Source: Ignavibacteriales bacterium (GTDB taxonomy: Bacteria > Bacteroidota > Ignavibacteria > UBA10030 > UBA8401). Taken from it: DNA of 64,000 nt. Positions 17,815 to 63,861 of the stretch are shown here, piece after piece. Position numbers and translations under genes: made by a program. The stretch's first letter is position 1; the number at the start of each line of letters is the position of its first letter. The stretch lies in assembly GCA_037443785.1 (NCBI GenBank), contig JBBINR010000013.1, positions 9,525-73,524 of the forward strand. Direction: 5' to 3'. The notes beneath the pieces were generated by a model. It was given only the letters and a program-made list of their open reading frames with translations. It had not been told where the DNA came from and searched no databases.

Positions 17815-17870
17815 TGGTTTCCCCTTTTGTATGATAAATAAATCGATGGATGCTTAGTTCAAGTTATTAA

Positions 17871-17914
17871 CAGGGATAAGTACACTCAATAACGCATATG
17901 CGTCATTTTAAAAT
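17871..17914 (-). promoter_or_regulatory. conserved upstream element with palindrome ACGCATATGCGT, 67-100 bp upstream of the BNR gene start
   Basis: cagggataagtacactcaataacgcatatgcgtcattttaaaat is about 85% identical to the element at 20121..20160, at the same distance from the paralogous start codon. Confidence 0.45.
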
Positions 17915-17918
17915 AAGA

Positions 17919-17952
17919 ACACCTCACAAGGCTGTCCCATATGTGAGGTGTT
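17919..17952 (-). terminator. rho-independent terminator of the upstream BNR paralog
   Basis: Hairpin aacacctcaca-aggctgtcccata-tgtgaggtgtt followed (minus orientation) by a T-rich run. Confidence 0.6.
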
Positions 17953-17968
17953 AGCAAAGCCCAAAAAA

Positions 17969-20185: not shown

Positions 20186-20836
20186 TTATTTCAGAAGACC
20201 TTGCTTGATCGCTTTTGCGACTGCTTCGCTGCGGGAATGGACGTGGAGCTTTTCATAAATGTTGCGGATATGATTACGAACTGTTTCCGGTGAGATGAAA
20301 ATTTTCTCTGCAATCTGCTTATAGTTTAATCCTTGCACAAGAAGTCCCAAAACTTCCTGCTCACGCAGCGAAAGAATTTCCGATTCGGAATCTTTTTGTT
20401 CTGCGCGAGTTTTAAATGCTTCCAACACACGGCGCGCTACAAACGGCGTCATGGAGGTACCGCCATTGAGCGTTTCTTCGACCGCTTCTAAGATTTTCTG
20501 CCCCGAAGTTTGCTTTAACAGATATCCATCAGCCCCGGCAAAAATTGCCTGCATAATCTTTTCATCGTCGGTAAAATTCGTCAACATGATGATTCGAGGT
20601 GGAGTTGACCGTTTCTTCAATTCACGTACGCCGTCAATTCCTGAACCGTCGGGCAGTCCTATATCCATCAATACAACATCCGTCGATGTCATATTCTTCA
20701 GAACATCAGAGACCGTCTCATATACTCCGGCAAGTTCAAACCCTTTGGCAGATTGAACGACCTCGCTGACAATCTCACGGTAAGACGGATGATCTTCAAC
20801 GATGACTACACGAATATTTTTTCTTTTCGGTGGCAT
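20186..20836 (-). CDS. two-component response regulator, NarL/FixJ (LuxR-type HTH) family
   Basis: 216 aa; receiver domain (VVIVEDHP...D58-like MDIGLPDGSG) and a C-terminal LuxR HTH (LSLREQEVLGLLVQGLNYKQIAEKIFISPETVRNHIRNIYEKL). Confidence 0.9.
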   Translation of the reverse strand: MPPKRKNIRVVIVEDHPSYREIVSEVVQSAKGFELAGVYETVSDVLKNMTSTDVVLMDIGLPDGSGIDGVRELKKRSTPPRIIMLTNFTDDEKIMQAIFAGADGYLLKQTSGQKILEAVEETLNGGTSMTPFVARRVLEAFKTRAEQKDSESEILSLREQEVLGLLVQGLNYKQIAEKIFISPETVRNHIRNIYEKLHVHSRSEAVAKAIKQGLLK

Positions 20837-20875
20837 AGAGTGTCTATAGCAATCTTAGAGTAATTGGTTTTAGAA

Positions 20876-23800
20876 TCAATGACGCAATTGCGCCATTTTA
20901 ACTTGCACTGAAATTGATGTCCCTTTATTTTTCATTGAATCAATATGGATGACAGCACCAATTTTTTCAGCACGCGCATTCATATTTTTCAATCCGTGTC
21001 CTCCTATCGTCCTTGTCCTGGCGCCGGATCGCTCTATCCCCTTTCCATCGTCGCGAATGGTAAGATAAAAAACATCATCCTCGAACCATGAAAGGAGTTC
21101 GACCGACGATGCATCCGAATGTTTGATAATATTGTTTATTGCTTCCTTAAAAATGAGATAAATATTTTTCCGAACTTCCTCCGCTATCATAATTTCCGGA
21201 GGAATGATGCAAAATGCTAAATGGCATTCCAGTGAATGGTCATGACACCATTGAACCGAAAGATCGCCAATCCTGTCGACAAGATTTTTTAATGAATCAT
21301 GGCTCGGCGAAAGCGACCATACAACTTCTTCCATCGATTGTTTCGCATCGGATGACATCGCCGATAATTTATTTATTGCGTTTTCTAAATCGTTTCGACG
21401 TTGATTTGAACGATGCTGTATGGTTTCAGCATACAATGAAATACTATTCAGTGTCGAAGCAACGTCATCATGCAGATCGCGCGCGATTTTTTCCCGGACA
21501 CGCTGCCGCTCATCTGTCAATGCGCGTTCATGTTCAAGTTCTACGATCCGTTTTTTTAGTTTTCGGCGCGACACATACCAGGAGCCTGTAAAAATACCGC
21601 TAATAAAACCAAAGGCAGAAAATAATTTAAACCAGACCGTTGCCCACCACGGCGGTGAGATGATGATTTTAATTGATGTGCCTTGTTCATTCCAAATGCC
21701 GTCGTTGTTCGATCCTTTGACGTGAAAAACATATTCGCCGGGATCAATATTTGTATACCGCACAAACCGCTTGCTGCCCGCTTGCACCCATTCTTTATCG
21801 AGTCCTTTCAACATATACGCAAAACAATTGTTGCCGGGCGCAACGAGAGATAACGAAGAAAGTTCAAATGAGAAAAAGTTTTGATTGTAGGAAAGGACAA
21901 TGACCGAGTCGCGAAGCAGGGGTGAATAATCTTCATCGAAAATTTTAAATTGCGTAATGGCAATCGGCGGGATAAATTTGCTGTCCTGAATGCTGTCAGG
22001 AAAGAATTCCATCATTCCGTTATGAGCGCCAAAATAAAATTTACCGCTTCTTCCGCGATGGTACGCATTCTGATTAAATTCATTATTGATCGTGCCATCG
22101 TTTCGAAGATACGTGCGGAATGTTTTCTCCCGTGGAGAAAATTTCGACAAACCTTTTGCCGTACTCAGCCATAAATTATGTTTTTTGTCTTCAAGTATTC
22201 CGTATATCATATCCGTTTTCAAACCATCGGATTCCTTATAAGGAATAAAATGAAGGGAATCACCATCCTGCACTACTTTGTCGATCCCTCCGGCAAACGT
22301 TCCAACCCACAACGTGTTATCATGAGACTGATAAATACAGGAAACGACATTGTTGCTTATCGCATTTTTATCCGACGCGCTGCCTTGATATACTTTATAA
22401 GAATTATTTTTCGTGTCAAACCGGATGAGACCGCCGCCGTTCGTTCCAATCCAAAGATATCCGTCATTCGTTTTACACATCGACATTACCGTCTCTAAAT
22501 TTCTTTGGATGAAATTTGAATCGCTAAAAAATCGTTCAATTCGCCGTGATCCGTAGTTGTACTTCGCTAATCCAATTGATGTTCCCCACCAGATATTTCT
22601 TCGATCGTCAGGCAGCAACGAGTAAATGAAATTTCCTCCGAAAACATTTCCGGCCGACGAATCAAATATTAATTTCAGATTGTTCCCCGTACCCCTTGAA
22701 TAATAAAGTCCGTTCCGCGTCCCTATCCACAATGTGCCGCTGCTATCTTCCGACAAACACACCGGCCGCACAGCAGATATTTTCCGAAAACCTGAACGTT
22801 CATTTTCTCTCCGATATAGACCTGTATGCGTTCCAACCCAAAGCCGCCCGAGACGATCTTCCAGCATCGTCCACACGCTTCCATCTCCCAATGAATGGGG
22901 ATCGCTTGCATCATAGTGAGAGGTAATAAATTTTTTATTGTTTGGAATTACTTTGTTCAACCCGTCTGTGGTTCCAATCCATAAAATACTTTCGTCATCT
23001 TCGTAAATCGAAAGAATATTGTTATTACTAATGCTTGCAGGATTTAACGGATCATGAGCGTATTGTACCGCATCATAAATTTGCGGGCTACCATCGCGGG
23101 AATAATGTATCGTAAGCCGGAACACACCGATATCGCTTCCCATCCATGCATTTCCTTTTGAATCGAAAAAGACTATTCTTGACAGCCCTTTTTTTAGAAT
23201 CCGACGGGCGCGTTGTGACGTAGAAACCGCCCTTAGTTTTTTATCTTTGGAATCGTAGTAACACAACCCTAAACGTTCGTCCCCCAACCAAATGACGTTG
23301 TGCGGGTCTTTGCAAAGCCATGTTATAACGTGGTGTTGGATTTTTTTTTGTAATCGGGATTCAAATTTTATTTCTGTAAAGAATCCGGTCTCCGGGTTTA
23401 CTGTGAAAACTTTTTTTGTTGTCGTTACCCAAATGAGCGTATCATACTCTGTGCACACATCCATTATTTGGTCTTCACCATGGACTCCGCCGGGGATAAA
23501 ATATTGGTGATGTGTTTTGGTAATCGGAGAATATTTGACAAGGCTTCCGGTAAAGCTAACGAAGAGATTCCCCTTACTATCTTCACAGAATCCGCGGGCA
23601 TTCCCAAGGGCCGGCAATGGTATTTGTGCCAAGTTTGAAAAATGTTCAACGCGAAAATCTTGAGGATCGACGATATCAAGATCACTTGTTTGATACCGGA
23701 CGATGATTTTCCCTCCTTTTGAACAACTCAATTGCCAGACATTATTGGCGGATAACGATAATGAATCGCCTGTCCGATGTTTCAAAGTTTGAAAAGTTTT

Positions 23801-23983
23801 TCCGTCATATCTATTCAAACCATCGAGCGTTCCAACCCACAGGAAACCATGTTGGTCGCGGGTGATATCAAATGCAGAATTTTGAGAAAGTCCGTCTTCA
23901 ATCGTCAAATGTTCAAAACGTACTTCCTGCGCAAAGAGGAAGAATTGAAATCCAAAAAGAAATAAGACAAATAAGAATCGCAT
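20876..23983 (-). CDS. sensor histidine kinase with periplasmic two-component-regulator beta-propeller and Y_Y_Y domains, HisKA_3 and HATPase_c
   Basis: The ORF track extends to 24136; the real start is the ATG at 23983 (signal/TM MRFLFVLFLFGFQFFLFAQE). Propeller repeats (WVGT/WIGT) are followed by the Y_Y_Y region (YVFHVKGSNNDGIWNE), one TM helix, the H-box RDLHDDVASTLNSISL and a C-terminal ATPase. It lies 40 bp upstream of the NarL-type regulator. Confidence 0.88.
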   Translation of the reverse strand: MRFLFVLFLFGFQFFLFAQEVRFEHLTIEDGLSQNSAFDITRDQHGFLWVGTLDGLNRYDGKTFQTLKHRTGDSLSLSANNVWQLSCSKGGKIIVRYQTSDLDIVDPQDFRVEHFSNLAQIPLPALGNARGFCEDSKGNLFVSFTGSLVKYSPITKTHHQYFIPGGVHGEDQIMDVCTEYDTLIWVTTTKKVFTVNPETGFFTEIKFESRLQKKIQHHVITWLCKDPHNVIWLGDERLGLCYYDSKDKKLRAVSTSQRARRILKKGLSRIVFFDSKGNAWMGSDIGVFRLTIHYSRDGSPQIYDAVQYAHDPLNPASISNNNILSIYEDDESILWIGTTDGLNKVIPNNKKFITSHYDASDPHSLGDGSVWTMLEDRLGRLWVGTHTGLYRRENERSGFRKISAVRPVCLSEDSSGTLWIGTRNGLYYSRGTGNNLKLIFDSSAGNVFGGNFIYSLLPDDRRNIWWGTSIGLAKYNYGSRRIERFFSDSNFIQRNLETVMSMCKTNDGYLWIGTNGGGLIRFDTKNNSYKVYQGSASDKNAISNNVVSCIYQSHDNTLWVGTFAGGIDKVVQDGDSLHFIPYKESDGLKTDMIYGILEDKKHNLWLSTAKGLSKFSPREKTFRTYLRNDGTINNEFNQNAYHRGRSGKFYFGAHNGMMEFFPDSIQDSKFIPPIAITQFKIFDEDYSPLLRDSVIVLSYNQNFFSFELSSLSLVAPGNNCFAYMLKGLDKEWVQAGSKRFVRYTNIDPGEYVFHVKGSNNDGIWNEQGTSIKIIISPPWWATVWFKLFSAFGFISGIFTGSWYVSRRKLKKRIVELEHERALTDERQRVREKIARDLHDDVASTLNSISLYAETIQHRSNQRRNDLENAINKLSAMSSDAKQSMEEVVWSLSPSHDSLKNLVDRIGDLSVQWCHDHSLECHLAFCIIPPEIMIAEEVRKNIYLIFKEAINNIIKHSDASSVELLSWFEDDVFYLTIRDDGKGIERSGARTRTIGGHGLKNMNARAEKIGAVIHIDSMKNKGTSISVQVKMAQLRH

Positions 23984-24040
23984 TTGAGAAAATACAACAG
24001 GAAGAAAGGAGAAGCAAGAATGGAATGTGAAGTACGTTTC

Positions 24041-24078
24041 AAATAAAACGCCGTTGAACCTCCCCAGGTCAACGGCGC
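24041..24078. repeat. copy 2 of the GC-rich CCCC-loop hairpin (terminator-like in the minus orientation), 65 bp upstream of the sensor-kinase start
   Basis: aacgccgttg-a-acct-cccc-aggt-caacggcg differs from copy 1 by a compensatory C-G to T-A pair in the stem. Confidence 0.6.
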
Positions 24079-24396
24079 TTGTAGCTATTGTTTCAACCGC
24101 CTTCAAGTTGAAACAAAGTGGTACGTTACACTTCAAAATCTCATCGTGCCAAGTTATCTTATCAATAACTCGTTCGGGTCATTTTCATTTGAAGAACGTA
24201 TAAGCTCTTCTTCGGTGTGGTAATCTGCAAAAACTCTCCGAACAATTCCACTCCGCTAAAAATTATTTTTTTCTAATGACAAACCGCTGAATTCCTGGAA
24301 TGATGACAAATTTCTTGCATAAATCGGTCAGGTTCTGTAATATCTTCAACGATCCCAGCATATTAACTAACGTTATATATTTAAGGAGTTGTATCC

Positions 24397-39782: not shown

Positions 39783-40781
39783 TTACAAAAGCCACTCCAA
39801 AGAAATTCCCGGGGTGTAACCATGCAAGAGCGTAAGATGTGCGTCCGGATGAAAGACTGAATTTGAGGAACCAAAGTGCTCTTGCTTTTGTCGCTCATTA
39901 ATCACCTTTGCAAATGAATAACCGATGGCAATTCCCAATGGATAATCGCTCATCCAATGAATTCCCTGACCGAGCATGGCAATACCGATACAACCAATGG
40001 CAGAATATCCGACATAAGGAATCCACGTTGCTTCCGGGTAATTATCCATGATAACAGTAAGCGTTGCTGTTGCCGTAGCCAGATGTCCTGTTGGAAATGC
40101 ATCATACTTCGGGACGTGTTTCACGTAATCAATCTGATTGGGAAATAATCTCCACTTTCCGCTCCACGATGTAGCCAGTATCGGCGTTTCTCTGCCCGTA
40201 AGATGTTTGAGAAGTTGAATGACCGCACCGCAAGTTAAAATAACTTCAACTGTTTGTGATGCGGTTTGCAATGATTTATTGTTATCCGCTGCAAATCCGT
40301 GGATAGCAAAAGCACCGGCGATCCCAAATTGAAACCATCCTTGCCCCATAAATTCTGCCCGATCAGAAAGTTTTCGGAATGTATAATTCTGTTCGTAGAG
40401 TTTTCGTGCCGGTACATACATTTCGTGATCGTAGATAACAAGAAGTGTTGTCAATGCTGTTATTCCTGCATACAAAGGAAGCCGCTCTGCTCGAAATTCT
40501 CGCTGATACCATCCGGCCCATGTTCCCGGCATATTGGTAAAAGGATCTTTCCAACTCAGCGCAGTTTCCAACTGAAAAGAGCGTTGAAAGATTTGTGCTG
40601 AGGAGTCTTGGTTCCCCGCCAAAAAAGCAAAAGGCAATCCTGATGTATTTCCAAAATCCTTATTTTGGGAAAACACAACGGAGGAAAACAAAAAATATAT
40701 GGTCGATATTTTTAGGAAGGTATTCACATCCAAGATTGTTAAAATATTATTCCAACATCTCTGACTCCGAAAAATTCTCAT
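39783..40781 (-). CDS. PAP2 family membrane phosphatase (paralog)
   Basis: 332 aa; LTGRETP, PTGHLATA and HWMSDYPLG motifs. It lies directly upstream of the other PAP2 gene. Confidence 0.8.
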   Translation of the reverse strand: MRIFRSQRCWNNILTILDVNTFLKISTIYFLFSSVVFSQNKDFGNTSGLPFAFLAGNQDSSAQIFQRSFQLETALSWKDPFTNMPGTWAGWYQREFRAERLPLYAGITALTTLLVIYDHEMYVPARKLYEQNYTFRKLSDRAEFMGQGWFQFGIAGAFAIHGFAADNNKSLQTASQTVEVILTCGAVIQLLKHLTGRETPILATSWSGKWRLFPNQIDYVKHVPKYDAFPTGHLATATATLTVIMDNYPEATWIPYVGYSAIGCIGIAMLGQGIHWMSDYPLGIAIGYSFAKVINERQKQEHFGSSNSVFHPDAHLTLLHGYTPGISLEWLL

Positions 40782-41328
40782 TCACTATTTTAACTGCTTC
40801 GAGGTAGCGGTTTGAAGGAACGAAAATTTTAATCGGATATTTGAAGATCGTTCGGCCAAGCGCATTGTCGATGAATCCATCGGCAATTGTAGCGATATTA
40901 CCGGTATTTCTTCTGTTGGTAGTAATACCGGCACTTTCCAATTTTCCACGAATAATTTCCGCTTCCATATAGTCGGAAGATTTCACCACAAGTGCCCAGC
41001 CCTCGGAGACTTCCACGGAGGCATGAGCAGTACAAAGAAATCTGTTGTTCTTTTCCGTCAAGCATTGATCGCAAAATAATTGATGGCAAATAACACAAAC
41101 GCCAGTAGCGATTCCTGTCGGATGATTAGTACAGGAGTATTGATCTTCGGCAAATAATGTTCCGCACTGCGGGCAGTAATCGGAATCCAGATCAACTTCA
41201 CCACCGCAATGATCGCATTCATCCATCGGCCTCGATTCCGGCAGCGTATTCGCCAAAAGCACGTTACAATCGGCACAGAAGACCGCATCATCGGTATATT
41301 CAGTTTTACATTCCGGACAGTATTTCAT
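40747..41328 (-). CDS. double zinc-ribbon protein with C-terminal DUF2007-like (PII-like, putative signal-transducing) domain
   Basis: 193 aa. There are four CxxC pairs (CPECKT, CADCN, CDHCGG, CPQCGT) and a further run CTNHP...CVIC...CDQC. The C-terminal ALVVKSSDYMEAEIIRGKLESAGI resembles DUF2007. Confidence 0.6.
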   Translation of the reverse strand: MKYCPECKTEYTDDAVFCADCNVLLANTLPESRPMDECDHCGGEVDLDSDYCPQCGTLFAEDQYSCTNHPTGIATGVCVICHQLFCDQCLTEKNNRFLCTAHASVEVSEGWALVVKSSDYMEAEIIRGKLESAGITTNRRNTGNIATIADGFIDNALGRTIFKYPIKIFVPSNRYLEAVKIVNENFSESEMLE

Positions 41329-41387
41329 TACCGCCTCCTTTTTCCGCTTCGATAAAAAAAAAGTGATGATATCTGTGCGGTGATTTA

Positions 41388-42482
41388 TTAGACGTTAAAT
41401 CTAAAGTGACAAATATCCCCGTCATGCATTATGTATTCACGCCCTTCGACATGAAGCAAACCAGCTTCTTTTACCGCAGCTTCGGTTTTTAATCGAAACA
41501 AATCTTCACACTTCATAATTTCAGCCCGGATGAAGCCTTTTTCAAAATCTGTGTGGATTACACCTGCAGCTTCCGGAGCCATTGCACCTTTGCGGAGTGT
41601 CCAAGCATGAACTTCCTTCGGTCCCGCAGTAAAGAATGTTATCAAGTGCAACAAGTCCATTCCTTCACGGATAACTTTTTGCAAACCCGATTCCTTCAAT
41701 CCAAGTCCCTCTAAAAAGCCCGCTCGATCTTCTTGCGGAAGTTCGGCAACTTCGGCTTCAACTGCCGCGCTTACGACAACAACTTTTGCACCTTCCTTTG
41801 CGGCAATTTCTTTCACTTGTTCTACATATTGATTTCCCGAAGAGATTTCTTTTTCATGAACATTGCATACGTACATCACCGGTTTATTGGTGAGAAGGTG
41901 CATGTCACGAAGCCATAATTTTTCTTCTTCATTGTGCGCTTCTACATATCGAGCCAAACGACCGGTCAGCAAATGATTTTTTAATTTCAAACAAAAATCA
42001 GCCTCAGGTTTTACCTTTTTATCATTCTTTGCGCGATGCTCGGAATCCCGTACTTTCTTTTCTACCGTGTCGAGATCTTTCAGTATCAATTCTGTTTCAA
42101 TAACTTCAATATCTCGCTTCGGATTAACACTGCCGTCAACATGTACAACATTCGGGTCATCAAAGCACCGGACAACATGGGCAATGGCGTCAACATCACG
42201 AATGTGGGACAAGAACTGATTACCGAGCCCTTCTCCTTTACTTGCCCCTTTCACAAGTCCGGCAATATCAACAAACTCAATTGAAGAAGGAAGAATCTTT
42301 TGTGAACCATAAATTTGTACAAGTTTATCAATTCGATCATCTGCAACAAAAACAACACCGACATTCGGCTCAATCGTACAAAAAGGATAGTTTGCAGCTT
42401 CGGCACCTGCCGCAGTGATTGCATTAAAGAGCGTTGATTTACCTACATTTGGAAGTCCTACAATACCGACATTAAAACCCAT
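41388..42482 (-). CDS. ychF: ribosome-binding ATPase YchF (Obg-family GTPase)
   Basis: 364 aa; [17 protein letters not shown]1 motif and TGS C-terminal domain. Confidence 0.92.
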
Positions 42483-48500: not shown

Positions 48501-48543
48501 ATTTCTCTTGCATAAATATTCATTGTCTTGTATATTTATGCAT

Positions 48544-49569
48544 ATGAAAAAAAATATTTCTATCATTGGCGCATCAGGATATTCGGGGGCTGAGCTGCTT
48601 GGAATTCTGTTACGCCATCCAAACGTCAATGTCACAAAAGTTTTTGCGCATTCTTCTGCAGGTAAGAGAGTTGATGAACTCTATCCCAAATTCAGAGCCA
48701 CCTATATCGGGAAATTACCCTATGAAGAATATTCAATCGAGAAAGTTCTCAACGACGATCTTATCTTTATAGCTCTCCCTTCCGGCGAAGCGATGAATTA
48801 CGTTCCAGCTTTGGTTGATGCAGGTAAAAAAGTAATTGATCTTGGCGGGGATTTTCGATTACAAGATACTTCTCTCTATCAAAAATATTATAAACACGAA
48901 CATAAAGCTGGCTCTTATTTACCCAAAGCTGTGTATGGACTGCCTGAATGGAATAAAGAAAAAATTTCGTCTGCCCAGCTGATTGCAAACCCGGGGTGTT
49001 ACGTTACCAGCGCTTTGCTTCCTCTTCTTCCTCTTGTTAAAGAAAACATAATCCATGCAACAGGCATCACCATCAGCTCGCTCTCTGGGGTGTCGGGAGC
49101 AGGAAGAAGTTCTTCCATTGATCTATCATTTTCCGAAGCAAATGAATCAGTAAAAGCATACAAGGTCGGTGTACATCAGCATACACCCGAGATCGAAACT
49201 CTTCTCTCATTATTTGGGAAAAAACAAGCGGTGGTAACATTTGTCCCGCATCTTATACCAATTATTCGCGGAATTTATTCATCGATTTATGTGACACCAA
49301 ATGGAAACTTGACGCACGAACAGATCGAGTCTGTTTATAAAAAATATTATTCTGATGCACCGTTTGTTCGATTGATTGGTAATGCTGTTCCGGAAATTAA
49401 GCATGTACAATATTCCAATTACATCGACATCGGTTGGAAACTCTACGAACGTAATAATCAACTCATTGTCTTTTCAGTAATTGATAATTTGGTAAAAGGC
49501 GCAGCCGGACAAGCGGTACAAAATATGAATCTCATTTTTGGACTAAACGAAACAGAAGGTCTCTTATAA
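48544..49569 (+). CDS. argC: N-acetyl-gamma-glutamyl-phosphate reductase
   Basis: The ORF track starts at 48508; the real start is probably at 48544 (MKKNISIIGASGYSGAELL). The active site ANPGCYVTS is present. Confidence 0.9.
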   Translation: MKKNISIIGASGYSGAELLGILLRHPNVNVTKVFAHSSAGKRVDELYPKFRATYIGKLPYEEYSIEKVLNDDLIFIALPSGEAMNYVPALVDAGKKVIDLGGDFRLQDTSLYQKYYKHEHKAGSYLPKAVYGLPEWNKEKISSAQLIANPGCYVTSALLPLLPLVKENIIHATGITISSLSGVSGAGRSSSIDLSFSEANESVKAYKVGVHQHTPEIETLLSLFGKKQAVVTFVPHLIPIIRGIYSSIYVTPNGNLTHEQIESVYKKYYSDAPFVRLIGNAVPEIKHVQYSNYIDIGWKLYERNNQLIVFSVIDNLVKGAAGQAVQNMNLIFGLNETEGLL

Positions 49570-49570
49570 G

Positions 49571-50788
49571 ATGAAACATTTAAAAATAAAAACTGTGTTT
49601 GGAGGAGTGTGCGCTCCCCAGGGATTTATTGCTTCTGGAGTACGCGCCGGAATCAAAAAATCAAAAAAAGATATTGCTTTGATCTATTCTGAGGTGCCGG
49701 CATTTGCGACAGGTGTATTCACCAAAAGCGCCACTGTTGCCGCATGTGTCACACTCAATCAAAAGCAACTCAAGCGATCAAAAACCGCGCGTGGAATTCT
49801 TATTAACAGCGGTAATGCAAACGCATGCACCGGTGAACGCGGCATGATGAATGCAAAACAATCCGTTTCAACTACAGCATCGGCCTTGAGCATCAAAGAA
49901 TCTCAAGTTCTTGTCGCTTCAACCGGTGTGATCGGACAGTTCCTTCCTATGGATAAAATGACACATGGAATTTATGACGCGGCAAAGATTTTGAGTAAAG
50001 ATGGAAATGATGACGCTGCTGAAGGAATTTGCACGACCGATACGTTTCCAAAAGAATTTGCCGTTGAATTTGAAATCGGAGGTGTTCCGGTAAGAATCGG
50101 CGGAATTGCCAAAGGTTCCGGAATGATTGCACCTAACATGGCAACGATGCTTGCTTTTATTACTACGGATGCAAAAATATCGTACTCCCTGCTGCGAAAA
50201 TCATTCAAACAAGCGGTCGATAAATCGTTCAATCGAATTACTGTCGACGGCGACACCAGTACGAACGACATGGCGCTTATTCTTGCCAATGGAAAAGCTG
50301 AGAATAAAGATATTAAAGAAGGAACATCGGAATATAAACTCTTCTATTCAGCGTTGGAGCATGTATTGATTGTCCTTTCGAAGTTGATTGTGAAAGACGG
50401 CGAAGGTGCAACGAAATTTGTCGAGATCACCGTTACCGGCGCAAAAAGCACGGCTGATGCGGAAGTCGCATGCCGCACAATTTGCAACTCTCCTCTTGTG
50501 AAGACGGCAATTCATGGTGAGGATGCAAACTGGGGAAGAATTCTTGCCGCCGTCGGACGTTCGGGAATAAAATTCAATCCCGCTATCACAGAAATATTTT
50601 TTGATGAATTGAAAATCCTTGGAAAAAATTACGATATAAGTTTTTCAGAAGAAAAGGCAAAAACAATTTTGGAGAAAAAAGAAGTAACCATCACGGTTGA
50701 TCTGAATAACGGAAAACATTCAGCGACATTTTGGACGTGCGATCTTTCGGCAGAATATGTCAGAATTAATGCATCCTATAGATCATAA
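49571..50788 (+). CDS. argJ: bifunctional glutamate N-acetyltransferase / amino-acid acetyltransferase
   Basis: 405 aa; the ATMLAFITTDA self-cleavage site region. Confidence 0.9.
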   Translation: MKHLKIKTVFGGVCAPQGFIASGVRAGIKKSKKDIALIYSEVPAFATGVFTKSATVAACVTLNQKQLKRSKTARGILINSGNANACTGERGMMNAKQSVSTTASALSIKESQVLVASTGVIGQFLPMDKMTHGIYDAAKILSKDGNDDAAEGICTTDTFPKEFAVEFEIGGVPVRIGGIAKGSGMIAPNMATMLAFITTDAKISYSLLRKSFKQAVDKSFNRITVDGDTSTNDMALILANGKAENKDIKEGTSEYKLFYSALEHVLIVLSKLIVKDGEGATKFVEITVTGAKSTADAEVACRTICNSPLVKTAIHGEDANWGRILAAVGRSGIKFNPAITEIFFDELKILGKNYDISFSEEKAKTILEKKEVTITVDLNNGKHSATFWTCDLSAEYVRINASYRS

Positions 50789-50793
50789 AATTT

Positions 50794-51636
50794 ATGGCAC
50801 AAGCAAAAGAAGAAATATTGATTGAAGCTCTTCCCTACATTCAAAAGTACGAGGGAAAAACATTTGTCGTAAAATATGGCGGTGCGGCTCAAACTGAAAC
50901 GGAATTGAAACGTCAATTTGCAAAAGATGTTACCATTCTCAAAAAGATCGGCATCAACATCGTGATTGTGCATGGCGGCGGAAAAGAAATTACCGATGTC
51001 GCCTACAAACTTGGAATTGAGACACAATTTGTGAACGGACACCGATTCACCGATCAGAAAATGGTTGATGTTGTCCAAATGGTGCTCGCCGGAAAGATCA
51101 ACAAAGAAATCGTCAATTTAATAAACTTGAACGATGGAGAATCGGTTGGCATCAGCGGTGTTGACAATACACTCCTCACTGCTGAAAAATATTTCGAAGA
51201 TGGTGAAGATATCGGATTGGTCGGCAAAATCGTTACCGTGAATATTCCGTTCCTCCAGATGTTACTCACCAACAAATTGATGCCGGTGATTGCTCCATTC
51301 GGTGTGGGAGTTGACGGCACGATTTATAATGTCAATGCAGATCTTGCGGCTGCCGCTGTTGCGTCGGCATTGAAAGCGGAAAAGCTTGTTTATTTGAGCG
51401 ACGTCGAAGGTGTGATCGCAAACAAACAACTCGTTTCCACGTTGACCGAACAATATGCACGCGAATTATTCAGTGATGGCATCATCAGCGGCGGAATGAT
51501 CCCGAAAATTAAATCCGCTTTTTCAACACTTCATTCCGGTGTAAAAAAAGTTCATATGATTGACGGGCGAAAAAAACATTCGCTGCTGCTTGAAATTTTT
51601 ACTGATGAAGGAATTGGAACGGAATTAGTCCTTTAA
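50794..51636 (+). CDS. argB: acetylglutamate kinase
   Basis: 280 aa; VVKYGG, VIVHGGG motifs. Confidence 0.9.
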   Translation: MAQAKEEILIEALPYIQKYEGKTFVVKYGGAAQTETELKRQFAKDVTILKKIGINIVIVHGGGKEITDVAYKLGIETQFVNGHRFTDQKMVDVVQMVLAGKINKEIVNLINLNDGESVGISGVDNTLLTAEKYFEDGEDIGLVGKIVTVNIPFLQMLLTNKLMPVIAPFGVGVDGTIYNVNADLAAAAVASALKAEKLVYLSDVEGVIANKQLVSTLTEQYARELFSDGIISGGMIPKIKSAFSTLHSGVKKVHMIDGRKKHSLLLEIFTDEGIGTELVL

Positions 51637-51649
51637 TGAAAAGTCAACT

Positions 51650-52555
51650 ATGAAAAAAGATTTCCTCTCAATCGCAGATTTATCAAAGGAAGAAGTTTTT
51701 GAGCTTCTTGACCTGGCTGATTCTTTGAAAATAAAGAAAGAATTGAAGCCGCTGGCAGGAAAAACAGTCGCAACAATTTTCCAAAAACCTTCTTTGCGAA
51801 CACGTGTTTCATTTGAAGTCGGTATTATTCAGTTAGGCGGACATGCCATTTTTCTGACAGATGATGGCGTAGGACTCGGCAAACGTGAGTCTGCGTTAGA
51901 TGTTGCGCATGTTCTTTCGCGATTCAACGACGGAATTGTTGCGCGCGTATTCGATCATCAATTATTGCTCGACCTTGCGAAGCATGCAACCGTTCCGGTC
52001 ATCAACGCCCTTTCCGATCTCTCGCACCCGTGTCAAATTCTTGCCGATCTTTACACGATACGGCAGCACAAAAAATTGCGTGATCATGTCAAAATCGCGT
52101 ACGTCGGAGATGGAAACAACATCGTCAATTCGTGGCTTGAGCTGTCCTCAATCATTCCGCTTCATTTGACTTTGGCGATTCCGCACGGGTATGAACCGGA
52201 CAAAACGATTTATGATAAGGCACAGAATTCCCGTGTCAGTAAGATCGAAATAATTCGTGACCCCAAAAATGCCGTGAATAAAGCCGATGTTGTCTATACC
52301 GACACATGGACGAGCATGGGGCAGGAAAGTGAAAGAACGAAACGTATTTACGACTTCTGGGAATATCAAGTGAATACACCGTTGACCCGCCATGCAAAGG
52401 AGGATGTCCTTGTAATGCACTGTCTTCCTGCACACCGCGGCGAAGAAATTACGAGCGAAGCCCTGGACGGAAAACAATCCGTTGTAAATGATCAAGCGGA
52501 AAATCGTCTTCATATCCAAAAAGCGATCATGGCAAAGTTGATAGGAATAGTATGA
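51650..52555 (+). CDS. argF: ornithine (or N-acylornithine) carbamoyltransferase
   Basis: 301 aa; SLRTRVSFE (STRTR carbamoyl-phosphate motif) and HCLP. The plain versus acyl-ornithine substrate is not resolved. Confidence 0.8.
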   Translation: MKKDFLSIADLSKEEVFELLDLADSLKIKKELKPLAGKTVATIFQKPSLRTRVSFEVGIIQLGGHAIFLTDDGVGLGKRESALDVAHVLSRFNDGIVARVFDHQLLLDLAKHATVPVINALSDLSHPCQILADLYTIRQHKKLRDHVKIAYVGDGNNIVNSWLELSSIIPLHLTLAIPHGYEPDKTIYDKAQNSRVSKIEIIRDPKNAVNKADVVYTDTWTSMGQESERTKRIYDFWEYQVNTPLTRHAKEDVLVMHCLPAHRGEEITSEALDGKQSVVNDQAENRLHIQKAIMAKLIGIV

Positions 52556-53001
52556 TGAATAAACCACAACGTCTTTTCGTCATCAAAGAGATCATACAAT
52601 CTCAACCGGTCGCGAACCAGGAGGAGCTTGCCGGTCTCTTAAAGAAAAGAGGTTTTGAAGTTACGCAGGCGACATTATCTCGTGATCTTGCCGAACTTGG
52701 AGTGGCACGCATTCACACCCCTGACGGTGTCCGTTATTCCTTAACTCCGGTTTCAGAAGAACAAAAAGTCACTCCCCTCGTACTCAGAGAAGTAACCAGC
52801 ATCGATCACAACGAAGTGATGGTTGTTATTAAAACGCTTCCGGGACGAGCATCCGGGGTGGCTTCGTATCTCGACTCACTGAAAAATCCACAAATCATCG
52901 GCACCGTTGCCGGTGATGACACTGTGTTTATTACACCATCTTCCGTAAAGAAAATTGTTCCATTAGAAAAATTAATTAAAGAACTTTTATTGACTCAGTA
53001 A
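52552..53001 (+). CDS. argR: arginine repressor
   Basis: 149 aa; winged-helix N-domain (QEELAGLLKKRGFEVTQATLSRDL) and C-terminal oligomerisation domain (GTVAGDDTVFI). Confidence 0.88.
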   Translation: MMNKPQRLFVIKEIIQSQPVANQEELAGLLKKRGFEVTQATLSRDLAELGVARIHTPDGVRYSLTPVSEEQKVTPLVLREVTSIDHNEVMVVIKTLPGRASGVASYLDSLKNPQIIGTVAGDDTVFITPSSVKKIVPLEKLIKELLLTQ

Positions 53002-53028
53002 ATAACCATCCAAAGAAAAGAGGCACTC

Positions 53029-54267
53029 GTGAAAAAACAAAAAATAGCAGTTGCATATTCAGGCGGACTTGATACTTCCGTCATCGTAAAATGGCTTCAA
53101 GAAAAATATGATGCCGACGTCATCACGGTAACAGGAAATCTCGGACAGAAAAAAGAATTGGTCGGCGTTCCGGAAAAGGCGTACAAATCCGGTGCAAAAA
53201 AAGTCTTCATGCAAAATCTTGAAAAAGAATTTGTTTATGATTACATCTTCCCCGCTTTAAAAGCAGGCGCATTGTACGAACACAGTTATCCGATGGCAAC
53301 ATCGATCGGACGTCCACTGCTTGCCAAAGCACTTGTTGAAGTTGCAAAAAGAGAAAAATGTACCGCTGTTGCCCATGGCTGCACAGGAAAAGGCAACGAT
53401 CAGGTTCGTTTTGAAGTTTCGGTTATGGCACTCGCACCCGAATTAAAAGTTATCGCTCCATTGCGTGAGTGGGAATTCAAATCTCGCGAAGAAGAAATGG
53501 AATACTGCCATAAGCATGGTATTCCCGTTGCAGCGACAAAGAAAAGTCCGTATTCAATCGATGAAAATATCTGGGGAACAAGTATTGAGTGCGGGATTCT
53601 CGAGGATCCTATGGAGGTTGCACCGGAAGATGCATACACACGCACCGTCTCTCCAGAAAATGCTCCAAATAAACCAACCTACGTAACAATCGAGTTCAAA
53701 CAAGGAGTACCGGTTGGATTAAACGGAAAAAAAATGGACGGCGTTTCTCTTATTCATAAATTAAATGAGATTGCCGGTGCAAACGGTGTCGGGCGTCTCG
53801 ACCTCGTTGAAAATCGCCTCGTTGGAATTAAATCGCGCGAAGTGTACGAAGCGCCAGCTGCCGTAACACTTCACTTTGCCCATCGTGAATTAGAACGCTT
53901 AACTCTCGACAAAGAAGTGATGCATTACAAAGCAAAACTTTCCAACGATTATGCCGATATCATTTACAGCGGAACATGGTTCTCCCCTATTCGGAAAGCA
54001 CTCGATGCATTTATTAATGAAACACAAAAAAATGTCACGGGAATTGTAAAAGTAAAACTGTATAAAGGCAATGTTGAAATTGCCGGACGGACTTCGCCGT
54101 TTTCACTGTATGATATGAAATTAGCTACATACACTGTTGCGGATACATATGACCACACAGCAGCAGAAGGCTTCATTAAAATTTACGGCTTGCCGTTAAA
54201 GACATACAATCAGGTGAACAAAGAAAAATTTGCAAAAGTAAAGAAAGCATTAAGAAGAAAGAAATAA
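53029..54267 (+). CDS. argG: argininosuccinate synthase
   Basis: 412 aa; [11 protein letters not shown]-loop. Confidence 0.92.
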
Positions 54268-54284: not shown

Positions 54285-54320
54285 AAAAAAAACCCGCTTA
54301 CAGAGCGGGTTTTTTATTTT
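54285..54320 (+). terminator. rho-independent terminator of the arg operon
   Basis: aaaaaacccgct-tacaga-gcgggtttttt. Confidence 0.75.
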
Positions 54321-54423
54321 ACAAAATACTCTAAACGCGAACCAAAATAAATTTCGATTCACTCTCTTGAATTTAAGACATAATTGTATTATTTAATGGT
54401 GAAATTTCCTTCACCATCAGGGG

Positions 54424-55884
54424 GTGGTCATGTTTCGTAATCTCAGCATTTCTGTAAAGCTCTTCATTACATTCGTTCCAATCTTTATACTTGGAATCGT
54501 TCTCAGCGTTTACTTGAACAATCAAAATCAGGAACGCCAAATGCAGGATCAAGCACTCGAATCTGCAAGTCAAAAGGCTCACATCGTGCGAGAATCACTT
54601 GTCAACATGATGGTCGAAAGTCAAATGGTCAACGATGCCTATCTCGAAAAAATCAAACAGGTTGCAAATCTCAACGAACTCTACATAAGGATTGATACGA
54701 CGCGGCTTCATCTCGCGGAAGATTATATGGATGCACAACGATCCATCCGTTTGGGAGATCGGATGCGCCATGCACAACGAAAAGATGACTACGATAATTC
54801 GTACGGCAATGAAGTCCTTTTGACCGGACAGCAAAAATGGATCAGGGTCGGCGATAACTTCCGTGCAATGATTCCCTTTAAAGCCGAAAAAAAATGCCAG
54901 CGCTGCCATGACGTTCAAATCGGAGATGTGCTTGGCGTTGCCCACATTGAATTTCCTTTAACAAAAATTATTGAAACGAACCGGCAAAACTCTTTGCATG
55001 CGGCAGAAATTTCAGGCGGTGTTGCATTAATGGTCATTATCATTGGTTTTATTTTTTTTCGGTCACTTGTTCAAACTCCTTTAAAGAAGCTGGAAACTGC
55101 CGCAAAAGAAATCGGCAAAGGGAACATGACGGACGATCTAAAACTTCGCACATCCAATGATGAAGTCGGAAAGCTCGCACAGTCCTTTGTACAAATGCGA
55201 ACCGCATTAAAGCAAAGTCAGGATTCGATGCGGATTTCCACTGTCGGACAAATTGCCGCATCATTGGTTCAAGATTTCAGAGCACCGATCAAAAAAATTG
55301 AAACAGCAATCGACGAATTGAAGAACCCGCACCTTGAAGAACCAAAGAAAAATGAACTTCTCGCAGACGCAAAAGAAGGGGCAAATCTTGTCAACGAAAT
55401 GACGCAGGATCTTCTTGATTTTACATCCGGCGATATGAAAGTTGAAAAGAAATTGTCAAGCGTTGGTAAATTGCTTCGGACGGTAACCTCAATCGTAAAA
55501 CCCGATCTCGACAAACAAAATATCACACTGAATATCGTCACACTGTACGATGGCACCGCAGTTTTTGATGCTGATCGAACTGCTCGCGCGCTTGATAATA
55601 TAATAACGTACGCAGCAAATTATATCCCCACCGGAGGATCAATTAAATTAGAGTCAGATTCAATGGATAAAAATCTTCTTATACGAATCATTGATAACGG
55701 AAGCGGGATTCCGAAACAATTCCAAGAAAAAATTTTCGAACCATTTGTCAAAATTGTCCGCGGAGAAGGCGTTGGTCTTGACCTTGCATTGGCAAAACAA
55801 ATCATCGAACGGCAAGGGGGGAAAATTATTTTAGAATCGGAAGAACATAAAGGAACAACGTATACCATTTCTCTTCCGCTGTAA
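54424..55884 (+). CDS. orphan sensor histidine-kinase-like protein with periplasmic CxxCH (c-type heme) motif, HAMP, DHp and HATPase_c; Gln at the expected phospho-acceptor His position
   Basis: 486 aa. TM1 (FITFVPIFILGIVLSVYL), a periplasmic region of about 160 aa containing KKCQRCHD (codons at about 54898..54912), then TM2. The DHp sequence ISTVGQIAASLVQDFRAPI has Q at the position normally occupied by the phospho-acceptor His (caa at 55270..55272). The N box (IDNGSGIP) and G box (GVGLDLA) are intact. Confidence 0.8.
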   Translation: MVMFRNLSISVKLFITFVPIFILGIVLSVYLNNQNQERQMQDQALESASQKAHIVRESLVNMMVESQMVNDAYLEKIKQVANLNELYIRIDTTRLHLAEDYMDAQRSIRLGDRMRHAQRKDDYDNSYGNEVLLTGQQKWIRVGDNFRAMIPFKAEKKCQRCHDVQIGDVLGVAHIEFPLTKIIETNRQNSLHAAEISGGVALMVIIIGFIFFRSLVQTPLKKLETAAKEIGKGNMTDDLKLRTSNDEVGKLAQSFVQMRTALKQSQDSMRISTVGQIAASLVQDFRAPIKKIETAIDELKNPHLEEPKKNELLADAKEGANLVNEMTQDLLDFTSGDMKVEKKLSSVGKLLRTVTSIVKPDLDKQNITLNIVTLYDGTAVFDADRTARALDNIITYAANYIPTGGSIKLESDSMDKNLLIRIIDNGSGIPKQFQEKIFEPFVKIVRGEGVGLDLALAKQIIERQGGKIILESEEHKGTTYTISLPL

Positions 55885-56069
55885 TCACTTATTCTTTCTT
55901 ATAACAAAGGGGAGCAATTTTGGCTCCCCTTTTTCATTTTACTGCATCTCACTATTATCGGTAACATTCTTCAATCCAAAATTGTTATACAATGCAGACA
56001 GTTTTCACGTCTATGAATACCTTGAAACTGGCGAGCAAAACATCTACATTTTAGGAAAAAGGACATTTA

Positions 56070-56798
56070 ATGGAAAATATTAACATACTCACTGCGTTTG
56101 TTTTTGGTCTTCTTTCTTTCGTTTCACCGTGCGTTTTGCCAATTATTCCGGGCTACATCTCTTTTATTTCCGGACATACACTCGATGATTTAACAGGAAA
56201 CAATCGATCTGCAGCACGAGCAGTTTTCATCAATTCTCTCGTCTTCATCCTTGGCTTTACTCTCGTCTTTGTTTTAATGGGCGCCGCTGCAACATCAATC
56301 GGAAAACTTTTGAATGACAATTTGAATCTGATCAGCAAAGTTGCCGGAGCAATAATAATTATTTTCGGGCTTCACATGATTGGGATTTTTAAGATAGGCT
56401 TTCTCAATTATGAAAAAAGATTCCATCTTCAAGAGAAAAAACTCGGAATATTGGGCTCTTTTACAGTTGGCGCGGCTTTTGCATTTGGATGGACACCGTG
56501 TATAGGTCCAGTGCTTGCTGGAATCTTGGCAATTGCAAGTCAACAAGAGACGATTTGGCAGGGAATTCTTTTATTGTTCGTCTATTCATTGGGATTAGGA
56601 ATCCCATTTTTATTGACGGCAATAAGTATCAATAAATTTTTCAACGTCTTCAATCGAATCAAAAGACATTTTCATACAATCGAAGTCGTTGGTGGTATGA
56701 TGCTGGTCGGAGTTGGAATTTTAATGATGACAAATTATTTAACCATCATTGCAAGTTATCTTTCTCGGTGGCTTCCATTTTTGTCAACAATCGGCTGA
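56070..56798 (+). CDS. ccdA: cytochrome c biogenesis thiol-disulfide transporter CcdA (DsbD-family)
   Basis: 242 aa; SFVSPCVLPIIPGYISF and GWTPCIGPVL paired-Cys motifs; 6 TM helices. Confidence 0.85.
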   Translation: MENINILTAFVFGLLSFVSPCVLPIIPGYISFISGHTLDDLTGNNRSAARAVFINSLVFILGFTLVFVLMGAAATSIGKLLNDNLNLISKVAGAIIIIFGLHMIGIFKIGFLNYEKRFHLQEKKLGILGSFTVGAAFAFGWTPCIGPVLAGILAIASQQETIWQGILLLFVYSLGLGIPFLLTAISINKFFNVFNRIKRHFHTIEVVGGMMLVGVGILMMTNYLTIIASYLSRWLPFLSTIG

Positions 56799-62791: not shown

Positions 62792-63358
62792 ATGAATAAA
62801 CATCTTTTCATGATTGTGCTGTTCGCGCTAACTTCCCTTTCACTCGCTGCTACACCTGATAAAATCGAGAACTTTTCTTTAAATGATTTCAATGGCAAGA
62901 AAGTATCCCTTTCAGATTTCAAAGAATCAAAAGCAATTGTGTTAATGTTTATTGCAACTCAGTGTCCTGTTTCGAATGCATATAACGAACGGTACGTTAA
63001 ATTATACGCGGATTATAACGATAAAAGGATTTCATTTGTGGCAATTAATTCCAACAAAGCAGAATCTGTTGACGAAATTAAATCTCATGCCGTTGAACAC
63101 GGTTTTCAATTCCCAATTTTAAAAGATGTCGATAATATTATTGCCGATAAACTTGATGCAGAGCGGACACCAGAAATCTTTGTCATTAATCCGTCAACAA
63201 TGCAGGTTTTGTATCATGGAAGAATCGATGATTCACCCCGGGAATCAAAAATTACATCACGGAATTTGCGACGGGCACTCGATGAAATTTTGGATGGAAA
63301 AGATGTTTCGGTAAAAGAAACAAAAGCTTTTGGATGCACGATTAAACGGATAAATTAA
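62792..63358 (+). CDS. secreted thioredoxin-fold (redoxin/TlpA-like) protein with a CxxS motif
   Basis: 188 aa; signal peptide; ATQCPVSN active-site region (a single Cys). Confidence 0.65.
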   Translation: MNKHLFMIVLFALTSLSLAATPDKIENFSLNDFNGKKVSLSDFKESKAIVLMFIATQCPVSNAYNERYVKLYADYNDKRISFVAINSNKAESVDEIKSHAVEHGFQFPILKDVDNIIADKLDAERTPEIFVINPSTMQVLYHGRIDDSPRESKITSRNLRRALDEILDGKDVSVKETKAFGCTIKRIN

Positions 63359-63861
63359 TGCGTTCATATATTTTTATCTCCCTTTTGTGCTCCACTCTGA
63401 TGGCTCAAGAAAGCAAACTTAGTGTTCTGCCAATCAAACAGGAACAACTGGAAGAAATTATTTCTCACCGAAATGGAAACGTTCTTTTTCTCAACGTGTG
63501 GGCAACATGGTGCACGCCGTGCGTTGAAGAATTTCCTGATATCGTAAAACTTGCAGATGAATATCAGAGAAAAAACACCGCAGTTGAATTTATTGCCGTG
63601 AGCGCTGATTATCCTGATGAAATCGATTCTCTCATTCTTCCATTTCTCAAAAAATTTCCTAACATCTCCTTCAAAGTCTTTGTCGCCGATTTTAATTCGA
63701 TGGATGAATTTATTTCTTCTATCGATCAAGAATGGACTGGAGCAGTACCGGCAACCTTTCTTTTTTCTTCTGAGGGAAAAAGAACGAACTTGATGATTGG
63801 TCAGCATTCATATGATCAATTCAAAACTGAGATAGAAAAAATTTTACATTCCTCTAAATAA
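63358..63861 (+). CDS. TlpA/ResA-family thiol:disulfide oxidoreductase
   Basis: 167 aa; signal peptide; WATWCTPCVEEFP (WCxxC) thioredoxin active site. Confidence 0.8.
   Translation: MRSYIFISLLCSTLMAQESKLSVLPIKQEQLEEIISHRNGNVLFLNVWATWCTPCVEEFPDIVKLADEYQRKNTAVEFIAVSADYPDEIDSLILPFLKKFPNISFKVFVADFNSMDEFISSIDQEWTGAVPATFLFSSEGKRTNLMIGQHSYDQFKTEIEKILHSSK

Follow-up and report, generated by a model that had tools for sequence, protein, structure and literature searches.

A conserved sCache_heme-HAMP protein family of Ignavibacteria-like bacteria with a probable histidine pseudokinase module

The gene and its encoded protein

The window analysed here is a 64,000-nucleotide stretch of DNA from an Ignavibacteriales bacterium (GenBank assembly GCA_037443785.1, contig JBBINR010000013.1, positions 9,525 to 73,524 of the forward strand). 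Its open reading frame (ORF) at 54424..55884 (+), with a translation of 486 amino acids, encodes a predicted membrane protein in which a periplasmic single Cache domain with a heme-c attachment motif (the sCache_heme layout) is followed by a HAMP domain and by a module of the histidine kinase type, composed of a dimerisation and histidine phosphotransfer (DHp)-like hairpin and a catalytic and ATP-binding (CA) domain (Table 1). An initial annotation had described the protein as an orphan sensor kinase with Gln at the place of the phospho-acceptor His, and had named a pseudokinase or scaffold, a sequencing error and a kinase using another residue as possible explanations. The comparisons presented below point to the first of these: the protein is probably a histidine pseudokinase, conserved as such in a family of orthologs, in which the phospho-acceptor His and the Asn that ligates Mg-ATP have both been replaced.

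The gene was originally taken to start at GTG 54424, while ATG 54430 is the likelier start, given that the orthologs have 484 amino acids and the N-terminus MFRNL. A short hairpin, ACCATCAGGGGGTGGT (54411-54428), overlaps a G-rich, ribosome-binding-like run just 5' of this ATG and might influence translation initiation. The public gene call (P0001, 447 amino acids) starts at Met40 and would delete transmembrane helix 1 (window 54424-54543), in which K10, L11, T14, V16, P17 and F19 (numbered from the Met at ATG 54430) vary little or not at all across the family.

Table 1. Features of the pseudokinase gene and its immediate surroundings (positions in the window; aa, amino acids; AF2, AlphaFold2).
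Feature	Position	Strand	Basis
Terminator-like hairpin between argG and the pseudokinase gene	54287..54315	.	Hairpin search
Probable sCache_heme-HAMP histidine pseudokinase gene, including stop codon	54430..55884	+	ORF; ortholog N-termini
Transmembrane helix 1 (aa ~10-30)	54451..54513	+	Hydrophobic stretch KLFITFVPIFILGIVLSVYL; helical in AF2 model
Predicted periplasmic sensor domain (aa 31-191), single Cache fold with heme-c insertion	54514..54996	+	AF2, Foldseek
CQRCH heme-c attachment motif (C158, C161, H162; aa 158-162)	54895..54909	+	Invariant in 103/103 orthologs
Transmembrane helix 2 (aa ~192-213)	54997..55062	+	Hydrophobic; one continuous helix from sensor into HAMP in AF2 model
HAMP domain (aa 214-264)	55063..55215	+	Pfam PF00672, 5.9e-13
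DHp-like helical hairpin (aa ~265-345), degenerate H box SLVQDFRAP	55216..55458	+	Model helices 273-297 and 304-333; kinase alignments
Codon 283 caa, Gln at the phospho-acceptor His position	55270..55272	+	Alignment to solved kinases
HATPase_c-like (CA) domain (aa 382-486), remodelled nucleotide pocket	55567..55881	+	Pfam PF02518, 5.2e-21
Codon 396 tac, Tyr in place of the N-box Asn	55609..55611	+	Tyr in 103/103 orthologs
Terminator-like hairpin directly 3' of the pseudokinase gene	55906..55932	+	Hairpin search
ccdA (DsbD_TM family thiol-disulfide transporter)	56070..56798	+	Pfam 3.4e-25

The periplasmic sensor domain

The position of the sensor domain between the two hydrophobic helices (amino acids 10-30 and 192-213) places it outside the cytoplasm. 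The canonical CxxCH motif noted there by the initial annotation is present as CQRCH and holds the only two Cys of the whole protein; it is invariant in the orthologs and in all canonical sister proteins as well. In the AF2 model of the domain (predicted local distance difference test, pLDDT, 87.5; predicted template modelling score, pTM, 0.80) a long N-terminal helix is combined with a β-sheet into which helices are inserted, and a short helix between β3 and β4 carries the CxxCH (in domain numbering, strands 115-123 and 139-148, with a helix at 126-130 bearing C128-H132). The best Foldseek matches in the PDB are single Cache domains, among them the extracellular domain of WalK (1.4e-4), CitA and the three solved heme-c sensors GSU0935 (3b42, 9e-4), Tll0287 (5b82, 4e-3) and GSU0582 (3b47). 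When a profile of the family was compared with the PDB, matches were limited to 3b42 and 3b47, both weak (E 0.07 and 0.44, respectively) and both falling at the IPFxxExxCQxCH segment. Among 26 family members scanned, PF21563 touches all 26 (best 3.6e-5) and PF11845 touches 14 (best 7.8e-5), every match being below the gathering score, as are the weak matches of the query itself to these two families (E between 0.011 and 0.77).

The domain is confidently modelled as having the sCache_heme layout (DUF3365/Tll0287, GSU0582/GSU0935 type) defined by Deshpande et al. (PMC12889525). The invariance of the CxxCH and the predicted Cache fold together support the heme-c sensor first proposed for this protein, and we infer that the periplasmic domain binds a covalent heme c. 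M63, which is invariant in the family and kept in most canonical relatives too, is a better candidate for the distal heme ligand than H174, which is near-invariant within the family and not shared by the canonical relatives. Only one further ORF of at least 150 amino acids in the window contains a CxxCH; it is located at 40750-41394 (-), and its motif reads TGVCVICHQLF.

Loss of the phospho-acceptor His

The Gln reported at codon 283 is indeed encoded there, and in HMMER alignments it falls on the phospho-acceptor His of KinB (SISHEIRNPL), VicK (NVSHELRTPL) and 9p6i. The region scores 19.6 bits against the HisKA Pfam model, below its gathering score of 26.9, and the His in DHp helix 1 that marks class I HisKA kinases is absent. 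A search of 5.8 billion proteins retrieved about 104 orthologs of full architecture (43-77% identity), all from uncultured Bacteroidota/Ignavibacteria metagenome-assembled genomes (MAGs). They fall into clades A, B and C, with 59-100%, 54-55% and 43-51% identity to the query, respectively. Position 283 is Arg in 54 members, Gln in 44, His in five and Lys in one, the last being a truncated and poorly aligned fragment (P0104), and the surrounding motif S-L-x-[RQH]-D-F-R-x-P is near-invariant. The residue sorts by clade, with Gln throughout clade A (42 of 42 full-length members), a mixture of His and Gln in clade B, and Arg in all of clade C. An ortholog alignment had been proposed as a check on whether Gln is conserved; the answer is that it is so in clade A and not in the family at large. 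A conserved His that might replace it was not found in the cytoplasmic part across the family alignment. The codon is CAA in the query and CAG, a synonymous Gln codon, CGG or CAC in orthologs. An independent assembly, that of SRR11582159 in Logan, shows no difference over 4198 nucleotides, which include the whole gene.

The residues next to position 283 also bear on a possible phosphatase activity. The acidic D284 is kept in 100 of 105 members, and the fourth residue after the His position (H+4), part of the HisKA phosphatase motif, is Ala in 69 members, Ser in 16 and Thr in 10, with Asn never among the top six residue counts in the family. In the query this site reads D284-F-R-A287, with Ala at H+4, and so lacks the E/D-x-x-T/N phosphatase motif.

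A remodelled ATP site in a conserved fold

The ATP-binding boxes had been regarded as intact, which does not hold for the N box and holds only in part for the G boxes. The Asn that ligates Mg-ATP in the N box of solved kinases (LSNLVMNAL, LLNVMKNAI, IDNILNNAI) aligns to Tyr396, which is Tyr in all 103 orthologs compared. The G2 box reads GVGLDL rather than GxGLGL (GVGL[D/S/G]L across the family), and canonical sequences are found only in the G1 box (DNGSG) and the F box. Of these, the F box FEPF is invariant, followed by altered residues (T443K and G445V), and the Asp of G1 (DxGxG) is kept in 93 of 103 members, the remainder (~10%) having His, Asn or Gly. N399, one helical turn past Y396, and Y400 are both invariant. 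Compared with 20 canonical sister proteins, seven substitutions are fixed in the family (N396Y, D/E399N, A400Y, I433F, T443K, G445V and H464Q), and they cluster in the nucleotide pocket. A loss of ATP binding is suggested by these replacements.

The module as a whole is far from variable. Conservation is highest in the CA core, with 56% identity between the Gln and Arg clades compared to 47% for the sensor, and 54 alignment columns are invariant in the family. The full-length AF2 model (pLDDT 78) matches HK853 in Foldseek with a template modelling score of up to 0.83 and a root-mean-square deviation of 2.1 Å, and the kinase fold, a DHp hairpin and an α/β sandwich CA domain, is retained in the model. 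Such conservation, including that of the fixed substitutions, indicates that the module is not decaying. As the loss of the catalytic residues is itself conserved over the whole family, a real dead kinase is probable rather than a sequencing error. On the evidence of the alignments the family has the properties of a histidine pseudokinase, namely a fold under selection and a catalytic His and ATP-site residues that are lost across orthologs, and the pseudokinase or scaffold option, for which DivL had been cited as a parallel, is thereby supported.

Relatives and origin of the family

Family proteins are found in 39 GTDB species-representative genomes (residues 283/396 being Gln/Tyr in 19, Arg/Tyr in 18 and His/Tyr in two), none of which belongs to a cultured species. 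In an exhaustive search with a hidden Markov model (HMM) of the family against 1.84 billion cluster representatives (50% identity), the family itself appears as two representatives with 804 and 764 bits. The next proteins, at 477 bits and below, have the same architecture (CxxCH, HAMP, DHp, CA) with canonical SIIHDFRxPM, NIINNAEDA and GTGLGLAI motifs. The N-box residue in the 149 best representatives is Asn in 143 and a gap in four, and Tyr is found only in the two from the pseudokinase family. In a neighbour-joining (NJ) tree the family is monophyletic and sister to the canonical sCache_heme-HAMP kinases, and within its clade B the members with Gln are nested, those with His branching basally. 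This branching favours a replacement of Asn by Tyr prior to the losses of His: by parsimony on the NJ tree, the former would have occurred at the origin of the family, and the His would then have been lost independently three or more times.

In one MAG, JBAYIS01 (isolate SO_2016_GW1_36), a pseudokinase ortholog (L010) is found on one contig and a canonical paralog (L047) on another, and the canonical (His/Asn) and pseudokinase (Gln/Tyr) proteins carry a common heme motif, AEKKCQRCHDV. Another canonical relative (L051; 5010-13645, MAG JAMCQL01) is situated within a cluster of multiheme cytochromes (Paired_CXXCH, MtrC/MtrF-like) together with an NHL-repeat protein, and a sigma54-type regulator and a single-domain receiver are encoded about 5 kb upstream. 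From this location one may suspect that extracellular or respiratory electron transfer is under the control of the canonical sCache_heme kinases.

Genomic context

The gene was initially described as an orphan, and no response regulator gene adjoins it in the window. A search for a conserved response regulator or other partner nearby gave none, a receiver-domain gene being located near only two of about 45 family loci, and throughout the family the protein is an orphan. At one clade C locus (L042; 6245-7765) a hybrid histidine kinase (HisKA-HATPase_c-REC) is encoded directly upstream of the pseudokinase gene, a single case that is not conserved. The sole other two-component pair in the window (20186-24136, -) consists of a 1086-amino-acid Reg_prop/Y_Y_Y HisKA_3 kinase and a NarL/GerE-type response regulator.

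The genes said to come next, ccdA and those for TlpA-like thioredoxins, are both present. The former is the direct neighbour; the TlpA-like redoxins (62792-63861), however, lie six genes downstream, in the order ccdA, korAB, a gene for a DHH protein, pepA, a thioesterase gene and then two TlpA/redoxin-like genes. The terminator-like hairpins on both sides of the pseudokinase gene make its co-transcription with ccdA improbable, and the gene is probably monocistronic and separate from ccdA. The functional link that had been drawn to ccdA and TlpA is weak, since adjacency of ccdA is confined to clades A and B: ccdA adjoins the gene at 15 clade A/B loci and is absent in clade C, where the neighbourhood differs and a peptidase M28 gene lies upstream, and also from some clade A loci (L001). 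It is a neighbour in this lineage only, and at most a putative member of the same system.

Upstream of the gene lies argCJBF-argR-argG. This arginine cluster (48508-54267, +) comprises an argC-like gene, argJ, argB, argF and argG, with argR between argF and argG, and its order is common to clade A/B loci. Further upstream (15685-20062, -), two large BNR/sortilin-like β-propeller proteins with C-terminal Por_Secre_tail (type IX secretion) domains are encoded, which fit an origin from Bacteroidota/Ignavibacteria.

Comparison with known systems

Like the known sCache_heme sensors (PF11845; GSU0582/GSU0935, PF21563; CHH of P. azotoformans), the protein has an extracytoplasmic single Cache domain with the CxxCH helix between β3 and β4, two flanking transmembrane helices and a HAMP domain next, and like their nitric oxide (NO)-binding class it lacks the axial Cys of Tll0287. 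It differs from them in a very divergent sequence, with all Pfam matches below the gathering score, and in its output, which would be a dead kinase, whereas known outputs are active kinases, methyl-accepting chemotaxis proteins and GGDEF/EAL proteins, with a bare HAMP in CHH. The signalling-linked sCache_heme domains without the Tll0287-type axial Cys bind NO tightly and form no stable O2 complex, while stand-alone sCache_heme proteins act as redox proteins; neither pseudokinases nor Ignavibacteria/Bacteroidota are mentioned in the published survey (PMC12889525). A Cache_heme-HAMP receptor without an enzymatic output has been reported to signal through binding a Ser/Thr kinase (doi 10.64898/2026.05.25.727664).

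Besides the CHH receptor, two bacterial pseudokinases serve as precedents for the proposed mechanism. DivL of Caulobacter crescentus is inactive both as a kinase and as a phosphatase, has a weak affinity for ATP and acts as a sensor of DivK~P (PMC4211667). It shares with the family the class I HisKA/HATPase fold, its structure 4q20 ranking with the best matches by sequence and by fold, and a replaced His that is conserved as such in orthologs, consistent with a silent module under selection. DivL, however, is located in the cytoplasm, has several PAS domains and no heme sensor, carries Tyr in place of the His and has DivK~P and CckA as partners. It is no near relative, since the present family would have arisen separately, from sCache_heme kinases, and in this family the N-box Asn is replaced too. 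In PsmA, a hybrid pseudokinase of Streptomyces, orthologs differ in the residue at the His position, the motifs for ATP binding have degenerated and there is no phosphatase motif (PMC12963549). The similarity extends to the conservation of the H-box residues that follow the His position. PsmA differs in that it is cytoplasmic, has the build of a hybrid kinase and binds DivIVA, and its sensor and lineage are unrelated. In the present family, every member has the same, fixed pocket changes.

The canonical sCache_heme-HAMP kinases of the group (P0121-P0137, L046, L047, L050 and L051) share with the family the architecture, the AEKKCxxCH motif and a DFR-type H box, and are distinguished by the His (SIIHDFRxPM), the N-box Asn (NIINNAEDA), GTGLGLAI and the Thr and Gly after the F box. 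Plant ethylene receptors comprise a canonical subfamily 1 and a subfamily 2 with degenerate kinase domains, which act together through protein contacts. They provide an analogy only, that of a cofactor-based gas sensor duplicated into canonical forms and forms without the His and ATP motifs; the receptors are eukaryotic, copper-based and of unrelated lineage, and a joint action of the two bacterial paralogs is hypothetical.

Interpretation and alternative explanations

Taken together, it is probable, though with a fair margin for error, that the gene encodes a conserved sCache_heme-HAMP histidine pseudokinase with a partner-binding output. The protein would be a two-pass inner-membrane receptor whose periplasmic single Cache fold holds one covalent c-type heme with H162 as the proximal ligand. 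The signal at the heme would most likely be the binding of NO, by analogy with the characterised sCache_heme receptors, or otherwise a redox change. The change at the heme would be passed through transmembrane helix 2 and the HAMP domain to the DHp/CA module, which appears to have kept the histidine kinase fold and to be catalytically dead, without the phospho-acceptor His and the Mg-ATP Asn and with a remodelled pocket that is itself strictly conserved. As neither of these two residues is present, the output would not be His autophosphorylation; it is most likely a conformation-dependent protein-protein interaction. The partner might be an orphan response regulator, as for DivL, or, as in RetS-GacS and the plant ethylene-receptor subfamilies, a canonical kinase, for instance the sCache_heme paralog. 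Both the ligand and the partner are proposed here by analogy.

Several points weigh against this reading. The attachment of heme, its ligand and the loss of ATP binding are all deduced from sequence. The G1 box, the F box and most of G2 are kept and N399 is invariant, so that some nucleotide binding may persist. The sensor-domain Pfam matches are all under the gathering thresholds, the tree of the family's origin is an NJ tree only, and co-occurrence with a canonical paralog rests on a single MAG. Finally, the genomic context yields no partner, with neighbourhoods that vary by clade and receiver genes at the two loci mentioned above.

A more specific proposal, rather doubtful at present, is that the protein is one half of a paired receptor, in which the heme-c (NO/redox) pseudokinase heteromerises with or gates the canonical sCache_heme paralog, or else that the pocket formed by Y396, N399, Y400, F433, K443, V445 and Q464 binds a ligand other than Mg-ATP.

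It is improbable that the protein is instead a dedicated phosphatase for an orphan response regulator, switched by the state of the heme. Proteins of the HisKA type without the His can retain phosphatase activity, D284 is kept in nearly all members, the surface of DHp helix 1 is highly conserved, and about a quarter of the members have Ser or Thr at H+4. However, at H+4, where this activity needs Thr or Asn (motif cited in PMC12963549), the query and most of the family have Ala, no cognate regulator is linked to the gene, and DivL, the closest functional precedent, is without phosphatase activity (PMC4211667).

Quite improbable, too, is an active phosphotransferase with an unconventional acceptor or ATP mode, which might, for example, phosphorylate Ser, Thr or Tyr as do SpoIIAB or PDK-type GHKL kinases, or use N399 for Mg2+. 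The conserved G1, F and partly G2 boxes, the invariant N399 and Y400, and pocket substitutions that are fixed rather than drifting would fit such an enzyme. Against it stand the change of the N-box Asn and its neighbours to Tyr, Asn and Tyr, the replacement of the adenine-reading Asp of G1 in about a tenth of the members, and the lack of a conserved cytoplasmic His. To our knowledge the known GHKL protein kinases retain the N-box Asn. The early suggestion of a kinase using another residue is accordingly unlikely, with the Mg-ATP Asn lost along with any conserved cytoplasmic His.

The heme domain might also serve in redox reactions or electron transfer, with the cytoplasmic part as a mere anchor or dimerisation scaffold, and the redox behaviour of stand-alone sCache_heme proteins (PMC12889525) and the location of the canonical relative L051 among multiheme cytochromes are in line with this. 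Such a role is nevertheless highly improbable, as an anchor would need neither a HAMP domain that is intact nor a DHp/CA module so strongly conserved, and the domain lacks the Tll0287-type axial Cys, like the signalling-linked class shown to bind NO (PMC12889525).

That the gene is a decaying remnant of a duplicated sensor kinase, a pseudogene in the making, can hardly be upheld: the loss of catalytic residues and the variability of the His position would fit, yet the frame is intact in about 100 orthologs at 43-77% identity, the CA core is the best-conserved part, with 54 invariant columns in the family, and the gene occurs in 39 species-representative genomes, a conservation that contradicts decay. 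A sequencing or assembly error for His in an ordinary sensor kinase, which would require a single nucleotide change of caa (to cat or cac) and might be invoked because five family members bear His, is refuted by the ortholog alignment, in which clade A encodes Gln by both CAA and CAG, another clade has Arg (CGG) and the N-box Asn is independently Tyr in every member, and by the identical second assembly.

Implications

A heme-c sensor and a histidine pseudokinase are each of a known kind, and the novelty lies in their combination; with its fixed Asn to Tyr pocket, repeated loss of His and canonical sister paralog, this combination was not described in the literature searched. Bacterial histidine pseudokinases are known from only a handful of cases, such as DivL and PsmA. 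The family, with some 100 sequences and an identifiable canonical sister, provides a stepwise record in which the Tyr was probably fixed first and the His repeatedly lost to Gln or Arg. If the paired-receptor proposal were true, the family would constitute a natural series in which the ATP-site Asn was lost before the His, allowing the latter to disappear at least three times, and a bacterial counterpart of the canonical and degenerate pairs of ethylene receptors. For the pseudokinase reading as such, the family offers a tractable system for how a dead kinase module may relay a transmembrane signal from a newly recognised periplasmic heme-c sensor, putatively of the NO type. The automated label 'sensor histidine kinase' in these MAGs is likely to overstate the function of such proteins, whose candidate physiological outputs include respiration, nitrosative stress and extracellular electron transfer.

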